From: a virus
IMG/VR virus record: IMGVR_UViG_3300028549_003662
Coordinates: 1 to 64,000 of that record
Strand: one strand, 5' to 3'
Length of the DNA stretch: 64,000 nucleotides
Below, piece by piece: positions 4,207 through 63,122 of this stretch (its first letter is position 1; the number at the start of each line of letters is the position of its first letter). A program made the position numbers and the translations under genes. The notes beneath the pieces were generated by a model. That model searched no databases, was not told the origin of the DNA, and saw only the letters and a list, made by a program, of their open reading frames with translations.

Positions 4207-5059
4207 TGCGCACCACGCTTCTGATAATCCGTTTCGTGAGGGGTTCTGTGCTCACCATGTCAAGGCACTCGTCGACGCGCATCGTGTTGTTCTTGATGTC
4301 CTCAATCACCAGGGCGATGTCCTTGTACGTGGCTTCCTTCTTCTCCGAGCGCGTGCGCGTCATGGCGAAAGATGTGGCGTCAGGGGCGTCGGAGTCGGCG
4401 GTGATGTTGAGTTCGTGCCGCACGTAGGAGCCATCAGCGTTGACGACGTACGCGAAGCGGTTGTTCTGGTACTCGTCGCTCCACGTGCAGGGGTAAGGGG
4501 AGCCGACCTGGATGAGCTTCTTATCTTCCTTGGCGATCTCCGCGTTCTTGTGCAAGTGGCCGTTGAAGAGCAGCGGCGCATCCGGCATGCCGTCGAGGCT
4601 CAGCGCCCATTCCTTGTCGCTGTACGGGTTGAGCTCAACGATGTCCTTGTGCATGAACGCCATGCGGTACTGCCCGGCACCCCAATCCTTGGAATAGTAA
4701 GGGAGGAAGAGGCAGTCGTCGACGACGGTTGGCTTGCTGATGACGTTGACTCCAGCCAGCTTGAATATGTCCAGCAAGGAATAATCGTAGCCCTTGATGG
4801 GGGTGTCGTGGTTGCCGACGATCAAATAGATGCTGCTGAACATCTTGAAAATGGCGGCAATGGCCATGATCTGCTGGATGCTCACCATCGTATTGCGGTC
4901 GTAGAGGTCGCCGAGGACGACCAGAGACTTGCACTGCGATTTCACGGCGATGACACGCAGCTTGCGCATGAGGATGTTGAATTCCTCAATTCGTGTACGC
5001 GGCAGCCGCTCATGCAAATGCGTGTCAGTGATGACAAGAAGTGGAAACATCGAACACAC
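4169..5059 (-). CDS. sbcD: SbcD/Mre11/gp47-like metallophosphoesterase nuclease
   Basis: DTHLH, GDLYD, GNHD, GHLH motifs; adjacent to sbcC. Confidence 0.9.
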   Translation of the reverse strand: MCSMFPLLVITDTHLHERLPRTRIEEFNILMRKLRVIAVKSQCKSLVVLGDLYDRNTMVSIQQIMAIAAIFKMFSSIYLIVGNHDTPIKGYDYSLLDIFKLAGVNVISKPTVVDDCLFLPYYSKDWGAGQYRMAFMHKDIVELNPYSDKEWALSLDGMPDAPLLFNGHLHKNAEIAKEDKKLIQVGSPYPCTWSDEYQNNRFAYVVNADGSYVRHELNITADSDAPDATSFAMTRTRSEKKEATYKDIALVIEDIKNNTMRVDECLDMVSTEPLTKRIIRSVVRNADSAELDGSKL

Positions 5060-57877: not shown

Positions 57878-57921
57878 TAAACACCTGTCATACTCCCCTT
57901 CGGGGAGTTGACAGGTGTTTA
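57878..57921. repeat. 20-bp near-perfect inverted repeat (long hairpin)
   Basis: TAAACACCTGTCA-T-ACTCCCC-TTC-GGGGAGT-TGACAGGTGTTTA. Confidence 0.85.
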
Positions 57922-58641
57922 TGCATCAGTAGCAATAGCTTTACAAACGGTGTTGCGGCTCACGCCTAGCAGTTTAGCCACCTGCACTTTGTTCATGTTG
58001 CTGCGGTAGGCCTCACGTATCGCAGCGTAGTCGCTGTAGGCGCGCTTCACGTCGATGTCCTCCACGAGTGCCATGATGGTCGGCCTGCTTATCAGAAAGC
58101 GGCGGCTGATCTCTGTTGCGTTGCCGCACTTGCGGTATGCGGCCCTGATGGCGTCCACGGTGACTTGCGGCGGGCTGTTCTGGGGTCGCGTGGTGCGCTC
58201 CCCGTGCTTGAGCACGGTGATGACGTTTACGTTGCCCGGCCCATACGGCTGCGTGGCGTCCTTGAGCCGGATGATGTGCTTGGCCGTCACGGTGTAGCTC
58301 TGTGCGAGCCACCACGCCTTGAAGTCCTTGTAGTCTAGCCACTTCAAGCAGACACCTTGCGGGCTGCCCAGCATGTTGCGCCAGCGCACATAGAGCTTGT
58401 TGCGCTGTTTCGCGCTGGCATCGTTGCCCTGCTTTCCTGTGCGCTCATTGCGCAGGCACCCGCATGACTTTGTAGCGCCTCTGCGCAATGACTGCGACAC
58501 CGTGCAGATGATGTTCCCGCAGTCGCATTGGCAGTACACACCGACGCGAGCGCAGAAGAGCTTGCGTGACCTTGTGAAACCGATGACGGTCAGTCTGCCG
58601 TAGCGGTCATCGACCGCCACAAGCGTCTTGCGCCCCGCCAT
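57919..58641 (-). CDS. Degenerate HNH-homing-endonuclease-like protein with C-terminal HTHs
   Basis: YGRLTV, CQCDCGN, TKSCGC, VCLKW..F..W, PYGPGN; two HTHs. Confidence 0.7.
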   Translation of the reverse strand: MAGRKTLVAVDDRYGRLTVIGFTRSRKLFCARVGVYCQCDCGNIICTVSQSLRRGATKSCGCLRNERTGKQGNDASAKQRNKLYVRWRNMLGSPQGVCLKWLDYKDFKAWWLAQSYTVTAKHIIRLKDATQPYGPGNVNVITVLKHGERTTRPQNSPPQVTVDAIRAAYRKCGNATEISRRFLISRPTIMALVEDIDVKRAYSDYAAIREAYRSNMNKVQVAKLLGVSRNTVCKAIATDA

Positions 58642-59144
58642 CACGCCCACCGCATGAGGACTTCACCTTCCGGCAGCGGGCAGTTCGCTATCCACACGAT
58701 GTCGCGCTTGATGGTGAAGATGTCCGAGACATCAGGCACGTCGATGCCCTCGAAGACGTTCAGGCGCATCGTCTTGCCCTTCACGCCCTCGGTGTGCACC
58801 AGCCACTCGTAGAGGCGCATGAACTGCGCGACATCGTCCTGTTCGTGCAGCGTTATCGTCATGCCGTCGAGCAGCCACAGCACCCTGGAGACGGCGTTGA
58901 TGGTGTAGTGTGCGGTGTAGAGGAGCAGCCGCGTGTCGGGGTCGCAGACGCTGCGGATGCCGCGAACGAGTTCCCGCACCATGTCCGGGTACAGCAGCGG
59001 CTCACCGCCGGTGAGGATGATGTCCTTGTACCCTGTGAAGCCTTCAGGGCGCGGCAGCGCTTCGTAGTTGAAGCTCTTGTTGCAGCAGCCGGGGCAGTCA
59101 CGATTGCATTCCGGCCATAGTATCAGGCGCATTTTGTCGGGCAT
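58641..59144 (-). CDS. Short radical SAM protein
   Basis: CNRDCPGC, ILTGGEPLL, LYT. Confidence 0.85.
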   Translation of the reverse strand: MPDKMRLILWPECNRDCPGCCNKSFNYEALPRPEGFTGYKDIILTGGEPLLYPDMVRELVRGIRSVCDPDTRLLLYTAHYTINAVSRVLWLLDGMTITLHEQDDVAQFMRLYEWLVHTEGVKGKTMRLNVFEGIDVPDVSDIFTIKRDIVWIANCPLPEGEVLMRWA

Positions 59145-59350
59145 GTGCTCACCACTCCTTTTGCGCGATCCCGCGCATCTTTGAACGCGTTGGCCATTAC
59201 GAACATGCTCGGCGCGATGTCGCTGCATTCGAAGCCGAACTTGAACAGTTCGAAAAGGCTTTCGATTTCGTACACCTTCGGGTCTTTGTCGCCTATGAGC
59301 GTGATGCGCCGCACGAGTTCTTCGTGGTCGCCAGTGAAGTGTGCCAGCAT
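59123..59350 (-). CDS. Hypothetical protein
   Basis: RBS. Confidence 0.6.
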   Translation of the reverse strand: MLAHFTGDHEELVRRITLIGDKDPKVYEIESLFELFKFGFECSDIAPSMFVMANAFKDARDRAKGVVSTCPTKCA

Positions 59351-60792: not shown

Positions 60793-61061
60793 CCCGGCAG
60801 CCCGCCGAAGAGAGCGTCCTTGAGCGCCTCCAGCGTGTCTGCGGGCAGGTTGATGCGTAGGAAGGAAGCGATGTGCGCGGCCTCCATGCGTGGCTGCGGC
60901 GGCAGGTACTGGCCGGTGATGGCCTCATAGCTGCGCTGGGTGAAGAGGGTGAGGACGGCCTCGCCGGGTCCGACATCGTTCTTGCGCGTTGTCACGACGT
61001 TGCGTCCGTAGAGGTCCATCTGGACTCCATTTTCCGTGGTGATGATGTCGCTGCTTTCCAT
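60789..61061 (-). CDS. Hypothetical protein
   Basis: RBS. Confidence 0.65.
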   Translation of the reverse strand: MESSDIITTENGVQMDLYGRNVVTTRKNDVGPGEAVLTLFTQRSYEAITGQYLPPQPRMEAAHIASFLRINLPADTLEALKDALFGGLPG

Positions 61062-61070
61062 GCTGTCCTC

Positions 61071-61718
61071 CTAGCGGTTAGCGGTTATGGCGTCTGCCAG
61101 CGTGGAGTAGGTGCCGTGGCCGTCCTTCTCCGGCTTGTCACACAGAACCATCATGGAGTTCGTGTACTGCGTGGCCGCCCAGAACCGGCATATGGCGAAG
61201 TGGCTGCTGATGCGGGTGACGTGGCCGTCGAAGCGGAAGATGAACAGTTCCCCGTTTTCGGTGTCGTGGTAGTAGTGCTCATCAACGGCGTCGAACATAC
61301 CCAGGCACTTGATGATTTCGTTGTTGGCCACCATAGCGGAGCACGCCGCATTGAGCATGTTCGTGCTGTGCCGGGTATCTTCCTGGCTGTTCACGATCAT
61401 GAATCCGCGCTCGACGAACACGCCGTTGGTGTAGTGGATGACGACAGGCATTGTCATCCCCAGGGCCGCCATGACCATGTGCAGTTCATCCGCGAACATG
61501 TCGATGATTTCAGCGCCATTCTCCGTGAAGGCGTACTGGCCTTTGCCGGGCTGCGAGGTGACGACGACACGGCTGGGCTGGTAGTCGTCACCGTAGATGC
61601 TCTTGAGTTCGCGGATGATTTTACGTGCCGTCTCCGGCCCGTCCTCCCAGCCCTCTGCGACGTTGCGCAGCACGATGAGTTCGTCGAAGGTGAAGCTGCC
61701 CAGATTGGCGTGAAGCAT
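61071..61718 (-). CDS. Hypothetical protein (directly downstream of ribozyme)
   Basis: AAGGAGG RBS; 215 aa. Confidence 0.75.
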   Translation of the reverse strand: MLHANLGSFTFDELIVLRNVAEGWEDGPETARKIIRELKSIYGDDYQPSRVVVTSQPGKGQYAFTENGAEIIDMFADELHMVMAALGMTMPVVIHYTNGVFVERGFMIVNSQEDTRHSTNMLNAACSAMVANNEIIKCLGMFDAVDEHYYHDTENGELFIFRFDGHVTRISSHFAICRFWAATQYTNSMMVLCDKPEKDGHGTYSTLADAITANR

Positions 61719-61736
61719 GTTGCCTCCTTTGTGCGG

Positions 61737-61813
61737 GTGTCTGCCTCGTCAGCGCCGGGAGACTATCTCCGGCGTATCGCCCCTGCTCCTACAGGGGCGA
61801 TTTCGGCTCACAC
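61737..61813 (-). ncRNA. Type II hammerhead ribozyme
   Basis: GUGUGAGCC-GAAA-UCGCCCCUG[UAGGAG]CAGGGGCGA-UA-CGCCGGAGA[UAG]UCUCCCGGCG-CUGACGA-GGCAGACAC: full core and three stems. Confidence 0.88.
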
Positions 61814-62149
61814 TTCCTTGTCGCGTCTCCAGTACTTCTGCACGATGCCGCTGATGGCCTCGGTGATAGCGTCGTGCCCGGCGTCGCCCACATGCTGCCA
61901 GTCGTCCATGCACAGCATGTCGCTCACGGTGTCGTCAACGACAGCGCGCTGGGCGTCTGTGAGTTCAGCGTAGACCTGGCGGGCGTGTTCTTCCCGGACA
62001 CGCTTGGCGATGCCGCTGATGAGCGCGCCCAGCTTCTTGTGCGCGGCCAGGAAGCCGTTGTCGAACTCGTTCGCGCAGGGCATGTTTGCGATGATCTCAT
62101 CGCAAGCAGCGGCGATTTCCTCCAGGGCTGTGATGTGCTTGTCTTCCAT
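61808..62149 (-). CDS. Hypothetical protein
   Basis: RBS; stop codon lies in ribozyme stem II. Confidence 0.7.
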   Translation of the reverse strand: MEDKHITALEEIAAACDEIIANMPCANEFDNGFLAAHKKLGALISGIAKRVREEHARQVYAELTDAQRAVVDDTVSDMLCMDDWQHVGDAGHDAITEAISGIVQKYWRRDKEV

Positions 62150-62152
62150 GTG

Positions 62153-62791
62153 CTAGGCCTCCTTGGTGAGGTACTCTGCGTAGATGCAGCCGTCGGGGCC
62201 GTCCTCGTAGTCCTGCTCGGCAGCGCGCTGGATGAAGTCCATGTCGCTCTCGCCTTCCGCGACCTCGTACCCGGCGTTCTGGTAGCCTTCGTAGGCGTTC
62301 TCGGTTCCGGCGATGTAGTCGGCGATGATGGCGGCAACGAACTCCTGGCGGGTGCGTCCCGTGGCGGGAACAGCGGCGGCGAGTTCGTTGTATGCTCGCA
62401 TGAGGCACTCGTTGCTCCAGCGCGCGCCGCCAAGCCCGCATGTACTGTTCACCACCGCCCAGCCCGACCCGGCTTCACCGCCTTCTGCGTTCGGGCTGTA
62501 GTGAACGGTGACGACATCGTTGATCTTCGCGTACTGCATGAGCAGTTCGAGTTCAGCTACGAAGGCGTCGATGTCGCCGCAGTCGCAGTGGTAGGCCTCC
62601 TTGCGGATTTCGAACACGTCCACGTAGCTGGGTGCGTATTCGGCACCGTGTGCGTCCTTGAGGGCTTCCGTGACCTCGCGCACCCAGGTGCCTACGATGT
62701 CGTCCTCGTCGCAGAGTTCGTCGTGCGTGATGTACTTCAGCGCCAGGATTTGTTCCGGCGTCCAGCCCGCCAAGCTAACGATAATACCCAT
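62153..62791 (-). CDS. Highly acidic hypothetical protein
   Basis: GAGGAGG RBS; D/E-rich. Confidence 0.7.
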   Translation of the reverse strand: MGIIVSLAGWTPEQILALKYITHDELCDEDDIVGTWVREVTEALKDAHGAEYAPSYVDVFEIRKEAYHCDCGDIDAFVAELELLMQYAKINDVVTVHYSPNAEGGEAGSGWAVVNSTCGLGGARWSNECLMRAYNELAAAVPATGRTRQEFVAAIIADYIAGTENAYEGYQNAGYEVAEGESDMDFIQRAAEQDYEDGPDGCIYAEYLTKEA

Positions 62792-62792
62792 G

Positions 62793-63122
62793 CTACCCCT
62801 CCTCGGTTGTGTACTTGAGGCCGTTGCTGGTTTCGTTTTCGAGCACATGCTTCAGCGCGTTTATGGAACTCGCGCTGTAGTTGCTCCTGATGAGGCTACG
62901 TGCGAGGTCGCACACCGCGTCGTAGTTGTTCAGGGCTTCCAGGATGTGCTCGGCTTGCGCGTTCTTGGGCAGGCGCTCCGTGCACAGGTGGCCCACGAAG
63001 GTCGGGCCGCCTTCGCCGCCGCAGCACTCGCAGCGCGGCAACGTGTAGGTCAGCGTCTGCGCCCTGGTCGGGGTGCTGTGCGGTTCAGACAGCGCCCAGA
63101 GTGGGTTGCGTTTATTGGTCAT
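62793..63122 (-). CDS. Hypothetical protein
   Basis: RBS, CxCC. Confidence 0.6.
   Translation of the reverse strand: MTNKRNPLWALSEPHSTPTRAQTLTYTLPRCECCGGEGGPTFVGHLCTERLPKNAQAEHILEALNNYDAVCDLARSLIRSNYSASSINALKHVLENETSNGLKYTTEEG

Follow-up and report, generated by a model that had tools for sequence, protein, structure and literature searches.

A type II hammerhead ribozyme in an intergenic gap of a phage genome and its probable role in transcript cutting

Introduction

The closest described counterparts of the element reported here are the type II hammerhead ribozymes of bacteria and phages. The core criteria for hammerheads have been listed, and a pseudoknot between loop I and the 3′ tail of the type II members has been described and tested by mutation (PMC3088659). 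Type II hammerheads arranged in prophage clusters cleave in vitro, where native fragments of about 2 kb were used, and those of A. tumefaciens also cleave in vivo (PMC3088659). A 5′ end mapped in the haloviruses HF1 and HF2 falls no more than 3 nt from a hammerhead cut that precedes an early gene by 13 nt (PMC3088659). The idea that phage hammerheads cut long RNAs into gene-length messages dates from 2011 (PMC3088659); a 2019 review regards their purpose as still undefined, for every example (PMC6765202).

The window, meaning the whole 64,000-nt stretch of DNA analysed here, covers the initial 64 kb of an IMG/VR record from a microbial mat, 146,098 bp long, that CheckV rates as about 91% complete. 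A sequence-only reading of it had pointed to an intact type II hammerhead on the minus strand, wedged between two genes, and had proposed an Rfam model search and a look for covariation in related phages as checks. Identity, fold, conservation, covariation and placement of the element are established below, and the element probably works as a hammerhead that cuts a long minus-strand message.

Genome setting

The record clearly belongs to a phage, since it encodes a DNA polymerase, a primase-helicase, a helicase, an SbcC-like protein, a methyltransferase and NrdD. A plus-strand structural block lies near 116–143 kb of the record, and the ribozyme sits within a block of about 90 kb (approximately 24 to 115 kb) that is confined to the minus strand and holds non-structural genes. 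Genes were mapped with weighting by GC3; a longest-ORF map is misleading in this GC-rich DNA. Neither flanking gene matches a Pfam or PHROG family, and the same applies to most neighbours. That the flanking genes are “early” is plausible.

No promoter-like site is found in the 56–64 kb region, and the terminator-like sites there are all on the plus strand, fewer than in shuffled sequence, with none on the minus strand. The same orientation of genes on both sides, together with this lack of promoter-like and minus-strand terminator-like sites, suggests that the two flanking genes are co-transcribed.

Two further features of the phage are recorded here. The gene block that holds the ribozyme also encodes, roughly 3 kb further downstream, an HNH-endonuclease-like protein that has a helix-turn-helix at its C terminus (57919–58650, minus strand; phrog_374, E 1e-20); its gene overlaps by 10 nt that of a small protein with a 4Fe-4S/radical-SAM-like domain (58641–59228, minus strand; PF13353, E 5e-6). 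Outside the window, positions 70433–71434 of the record (minus strand; L169:6433-7434) encode a 333-aa relative of adenylosuccinate synthetase, which among solved structures comes closest to 6fm1, 6fko and 6tnh (E 1e-55), all short enzymes from phages, and to 7odx, named PurZ (E 8e-43); its similarity to cellular PurA is far weaker (E 1e-16 and weaker). Judging from this PurZ-like gene, the phage may make 2-aminoadenine (Z) DNA. Pfam finds no DatZ- or MazZ-like domain in the eight ORFs neighbouring it.

Identity and architecture of the element

A scan of the whole window with 4227 Rfam families gives one match at the gathering score, to RF02276 (Hammerhead_II). The match lies on the minus strand at 61735–61808, reaches 46.2 bits (gathering score 37) and spans the full model (positions 1–66), with an E value of 2.8e-6 for the window and 1.5e-9 for the genome. 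The remaining 82 kb were also scanned, and no further Rfam family reaches its gathering score in the 146,098-bp record, which thus carries a single hammerhead. The parts of the element and its surroundings are listed below in the order of transcription.

61808..62149, minus strand: upstream gene, 113 aa, from the ORF list (GC3 0.82); its TGA (61810–61808) adjoins stem II
61805..61807, minus strand: stem II 5′ strand, GCC (11.3–11.1), partner of 61743–61745; from sequence and Rfam alignment
61802..61804, minus strand: core G12 A13 A14, invariant in 117 aligned family members among the matches listed
61776..61801, minus strand: stem III hairpin, A15.1–U16.1 plus 9 bp, loop UAGGAG (61791–61786); from fold, compensatory changes and covariation
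61775, minus strand: H17, here A, with the predicted scissile bond on its 3′ side; from sequence and Rfam alignment
61753..61774, minus strand: stem I hairpin, six basal pairs CGCCGG/CCGGCG and an apical part with GUCU; from sequence, Rfam and double changes
61760..61763, minus strand: loop I half of the predicted pseudoknot, GUCU, partner of tail AGAC 61742–61739; from tail covariation
61746..61752, minus strand: core C3–A9, CUGACGA; from sequence and Rfam alignment
61743..61745, minus strand: stem II 3′ strand, GGC (10.1–10.3); from sequence, Rfam and family alignment
61739..61742, minus strand: 3′ tail AGAC, the tail half of the predicted pseudoknot; from family pattern and covariation
61716..61729, minus strand: RBS AAGGAGG (61729–61723) and ATG (61718–61716) of the downstream gene; from sequence
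61071..61718, minus strand: downstream gene, 215 aa, whose homologues in two other contigs (L002 and L174) are also preceded by a type II hammerhead

The minus-strand letters of 61735–61813 are those transcribed in the sequence-only reading, and its claim of an intact type II hammerhead stands. The core is complete, with C3 U4 G5 A6 N7 G8 A9, G12 A13 A14, A15.1, U16.1 and H17 all present (61752–61746, 61804–61801, 61776 and 61775). All three Watson-Crick pairs next to the core are kept, namely G61745–C61805 (10.1–11.1), C61774–G61753 (1.1–2.1) and A61801–U61776 (15.1–16.1). [quoted passage not shown] The minimum free energy (MFE) fold of the 79-nt RNA is a three-way junction of −42.8 kcal/mol (z-score −5.6 against 200 shuffles). 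Stem I has a one-nucleotide bulge. The predicted cut lies between 61775 and 61774, as in the sequence-only reading.

The cleavage triplet is AUA, in a family where GUC is near-universal: position 17 is C in 99 and position 16.2 is G in 98 of the 104 distinct family sequences among the matches listed. Under the NUH rule AUA is cleavable, usually more slowly. N7 is C in the window, as in 38 of the 104 family sequences among the matches listed, the other common base being U (63/104).

Relatives at the same locus

Close relatives of the locus are few. A blastn search with 61000–62900 against GenBank phages gives no match, a search of IMG/VR for related loci with either flanking protein finds none, and exact or near-exact DNA patterns of the window copy are absent from IMG/VR and from JGI metagenome contigs. 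A large protein collection yields one homologue for each flanking gene.

The closest relative, L002, a contig of 980 nt, encodes a downstream protein with 86% identity and has a hammerhead that scores 56.9 bits. In its stem III, G-C replaces C-G in one pair and another pair has been deleted on both sides, and the two basal pairs of stem I have changed from C-G and G-C to U-A and A-U. H17 is C in place of A, and the core is unchanged. The second relative, L174, is a 30.7-kb contig in which the upstream protein is 83% and the downstream protein 37% identical (E 7e-37); its hammerhead (48.3 bits) stands directly before the homologous downstream gene. The outer pair of stem II has changed from G-C to A-U in a compensatory manner, stems I and III differ again with compensation, and N7 is U.

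Both relatives carry compensatory changes in stems I, II and III, and the changes at N7 and H17 are permitted ones only. The ribozyme is kept 5′ of the downstream gene across considerable divergence. Since it is retained before the same gene with compensatory changes, selection has probably acted at this site.

Two features of L174 stand apart from these comparisons. An additional 60-aa ORF (4332–4514) separates the hammerhead from the upstream-gene homologue. The difference in identity between the upstream (83%) and the downstream (37%) protein may mean that the ribozyme marks a recombination boundary between modules.

The wider family and covariation

A search of IMG/VR contigs with a pattern of stem II GCC, GAAA, 30–60 nt, CUGANGA, GGC and AGAC finds at least 119 contigs. 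A variant ending in AGCC adds 47 more, for more than 150 contigs with the same architecture. From the AGAC set, 104 distinct sequences among the matches listed were parsed, and in these, apart from the invariant A15.1–U16.1, all pairs of stems I and III occur as several pair types.

A MAFFT alignment of 117 sequences among the matches listed bears out the covariation strongly in stems I and III. Of the cells, 91.5% are paired, compared with 72.6% in shuffles, and the covariation score is 0.456 against 0.117, a level reached by none of 500 shuffles of these listed sequences. When the partners are slid by one to three columns in the same listed set, the score is at most 0.105. All six stem I family pairs show double changes in this alignment of listed matches.

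Parts of the element recur in other settings. Contigs from four wastewater runs (labelled RNA-Seq; probably DNA) have only 36 nt of stem I and core in common with the window; beyond this part their stem IIIs and downstream genes are different ones, and each of these genes has an RBS of its own. Across these contigs and IMG/VR, a near-identical stem I and core (36 nt, with one to five differences) is present in many unrelated gene contexts.

Some family members carry more than one copy. Two or three hammerheads about 300–600 nt apart are seen in L078 (three copies), L039, L044, L066, L079, L088, L092, L098, L109, L141 and L148; each lies between a stop codon and the next RBS, and the arrangement resembles the single-gene “punctuation” arrays of prophages. 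In eight other contigs (L090, L093, L097, L100, L106, L113, L008 and L053) the hammerhead is followed by a common 3′ sequence with a short GC-rich hairpin (gccgcgcc-gtaa-cgcggc). Lying before the next gene, this sequence may represent another conserved RNA element, placed after the ribozyme.

The loop I–tail pseudoknot, stem II and the stem III loop

[quoted passage not shown] About 95 of the 104 family sequences among the matches listed have a G-U-Y motif at a distance of 11–12 nt from the 3′ end of hairpin I, and 60 of these listed sequences have exactly GUCU. Loop and tail covary. Among the matches listed, loop GUC accompanies a GAC tail in 86 of 107 cases and a GCC tail in 4 of 32, and loop GGC, conversely, accompanies a GCC tail in 16 of 32 and a GAC tail in 9 of 107 (Fisher p = 3e-12 for GUC and 1e-6 for GGC, kinship being ignored). 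In L174, two of the four pseudoknot pairs are left in the same register.

The sequence-only reading had instead extended stem II (3 bp, a 2x2 loop and 4 bp) by pairing GUGU (61813–61810) with ACAC (61740–61737). The complementarity is real in the window, and the helix is present in the nested MFE fold, so that the pairing is physically there. As a structural feature of the family it was rejected, since it stands at chance level: the 104 sequences among the matches listed form 1.12 of 4 pairs on average, against 1.11 ± 0.05 with shuffled partners. All four pairs are found in the window only, and the closest relative, L002, has two of four (104 sequences among the matches listed). The helix and the pseudoknot exclude each other, as 61740 and 61739 are used by both. 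The reading thus saw a pairing that exists in this copy and overlooked the conserved one; the conserved tertiary contact is predicted to be the known loop I–tail pseudoknot and not an extension of stem II.

Pairing of the tail with the catalytic core does not apply to this copy. CCUC or CCUU is found no more than 8 nt from the tail in 40 of the 104 sequences among the matches listed and is missing there from this copy, whose tail reads ACCCGCAC.

The AGGAG exposed in the stem III loop had been suggested as an SD-like or protein-binding site. This does not hold for the family, in which the loop is confined to the lineage of the window, and a conserved protein- or ribosome-binding site was rejected. 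Stem III loops of the family are mostly tetraloops, with UUCG the commonest among the matches listed; the loop of L174 is ACAU, and outside the window and L002 a GGAG loop occurs in one other of the 104 sequences among the matches listed.

Placement between genes and proposed working

The element fills most of the 89-nt gap, as had been claimed. The TGA abuts stem II, the ribozyme and its tail end at 61739, the RBS follows 9 nt and the start codon 20 nt past the tail. No repeats or mobility genes lie beside the ribozyme.

The family is placed in the same way, as 158 contexts among the matches listed indicate. In 128 of 148 listed cases the stop codon of an upstream frame of at least 40 codons ends between −15 and +3 relative to the base at which stem II begins, and among these listed members the stop is at 0 or +1 in 72 of 128. 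Downstream, an ORF of at least 50 codons begins within 120 nt in 138 of 150 listed cases, at a median of 20 nt, and a Shine-Dalgarno-like motif precedes 109 of the 138 ORFs (matches listed). With a stop at 0 and a start at 20, the window is a typical family member. An A precedes stem II in 90 of 104 sequences among the matches listed, and also in 21 of the 34 listed copies that lack an abutting stop codon.

The cutting of a transcript into hairpin-capped messages is the most likely role of such an element. This processing hypothesis is not new, as it is already contained, along with the type, the pseudoknot and the phage context, in PMC3088659. Applied to the window, the element is probably a working type II hammerhead within a long minus-strand message, cutting the transcript into uncoupled messages with hairpin ends. 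We infer cleavage, the nature of the product ends and the effect on expression from the features described above.

Once the polymerase has passed 61739, stems III and I would form hairpins and the 3-bp stem II (GCC with GGC) would close the three-way junction. The pseudoknot between loop I GUCU and tail AGAC would hold stems I and II side by side, and the core would cut after A61775. The upstream RNA would then end in the GC-rich 10-bp stem III hairpin with a 2′,3′-cyclic phosphate, and the downstream RNA would begin with a 5′-OH exactly where the pairing of stem I starts, 56 nt ahead of the start codon. The two products would be joined by the 3 bp of stem II alone and would separate quickly, with religation unlikely; the topology suggests this because only these 3 bp join the products and the pseudoknot lies wholly in the 3′ product. 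The two cistrons would be uncoupled, and their hairpin-capped ends would be expected to resist exonucleases and attack by 5′-monophosphate-dependent RNases. A 5′-OH is not always protective; in Bacillus, the downstream fragment of the cleaved glmS ribozyme is broken down by RNase J1. With one hammerhead per 146 kb, the element is therefore not a general processing system for the phage. Also counting against the transcript-cutting explanation are the AUA triplet, the competing GUGU/ACAC helix and the mere two of four pseudoknot pairs in L174.

Alternative explanations

A real ribozyme might instead be gated, so that the cut reports or tunes translation; this is unlikely. The gate would be either translation itself, with a ribosome stopped at the UGA covering stem II and GAAA and a 30S subunit on the RBS reaching the tail, or competition from the GUGU/ACAC helix. 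The tight spacing in the family fits such a gate (stop at 0 or +1 in 72 of 128, start at a median of 20 nt after the tail, among the matches listed), although plain genome compaction would also yield it. The two bases common to the helix and the pseudoknot (61740 and 61739) would permit competition, yet the helix is not conserved even in the closest relative. The slower-looking AUA would leave a time window for regulation, and regulated cleavage of phage hammerheads has been raised as a possibility (PMC3088659); against this, the element has no conserved ligand- or protein-binding feature, the AGGAG loop being lineage-specific.

A bolder form of this idea, also improbable, is that the ribozyme is built into the translation signals, so that a terminating ribosome would keep it unfolded and the cut would come only when upstream translation ceases. 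The first stem begins at the last base of the upstream stop codon, many relatives form the stop from UA and the G of stem II, and the tail end lies one 30S footprint ahead of the next start codon. If true, phage hammerheads would be sensors that couple message cutting to ribosome traffic, and AUA and the GUGU/ACAC helix would widen the time window.

There is likewise little chance that a real ribozyme lowers expression through the decay of one flanking message, or that it is a hitch-hiker of little benefit. A mobile or dispensable character would agree with the near-identical stem I and core in many unrelated gene contexts, with the varying neighbouring genes and with the single copy in the genome; for decay, RNase J attacks glmS-type 5′-OH products in some hosts. 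The hammerhead is nevertheless retained before the same gene down to 37% protein identity with compensatory changes, which speaks against both. Both new ends would be flush hairpins, the opposite of a decay entry site, and a hitch-hiker would have to do without flanking repeats or mobility genes.

A chance or decayed motif that does not cleave, to which the unusual AUA triplet and the one-nucleotide bulge of stem I might point, is very improbable in view of a score above the curated Rfam threshold (genome E 1.5e-9), the complete core and the retention of the motif, with compensatory changes, at this position in two relatives. Cutting of the transcript by a working hammerhead remains the preferred explanation.

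Significance and comparison with known systems

The element adds one well-supported type II hammerhead to a class of thousands and matters little alone. Its modest value is that of a clean test case, with a single ribozyme in a 146-kb phage, retained before one gene down to 37% protein identity, and with two defined flanking genes and translation signals. The statistics of the family (abutting stop in most copies, start at a median of 20 nt, covariation of pseudoknot and tail) lead to concrete constructs for the functional question.

The RNase III sites of the T7 early mRNA offer a functional analogy only: they are hairpin sites between cistrons at which a polycistron is cut into stable single messages. 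In T7 the cut is made by a host protein enzyme at a double-stranded site and leaves 5′-phosphate and 3′-OH ends, whereas the RNA of the window would cut itself and leave a 5′-OH and a 2′,3′-cyclic phosphate. The HHphage hammerhead of HF1 and HF2 stands before the first gene of a transcript, and the ribozyme of the window stands between genes.

Closer still are the hammerhead clusters in the prophages of Agrobacterium tumefaciens, Azorhizobium caulinodans and Clostridium scindens, which are likewise placed between cistrons of one transcript (PMC3088659). There two or three copies surround a gene, in contrast to the single copy in the 146 kb of this phage, and arrays with copies about 500–600 nt apart do occur in the family members L078, L039, L044, L066 and L079. 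Compared with the type II hammerheads of bacteria and phages as a class (RF02276, PMC3088659), the element has the same core, topology, loop I–tail pseudoknot and intergenic location in a phage, and nothing essential is different. The minor differences are that AUA replaces GUC, that stem III is longer, with 10 bp closed by a 6-nt loop, and that stem II could be extended in this copy alone. The element is an ordinary member of the class that has been found between phage genes since 2011.
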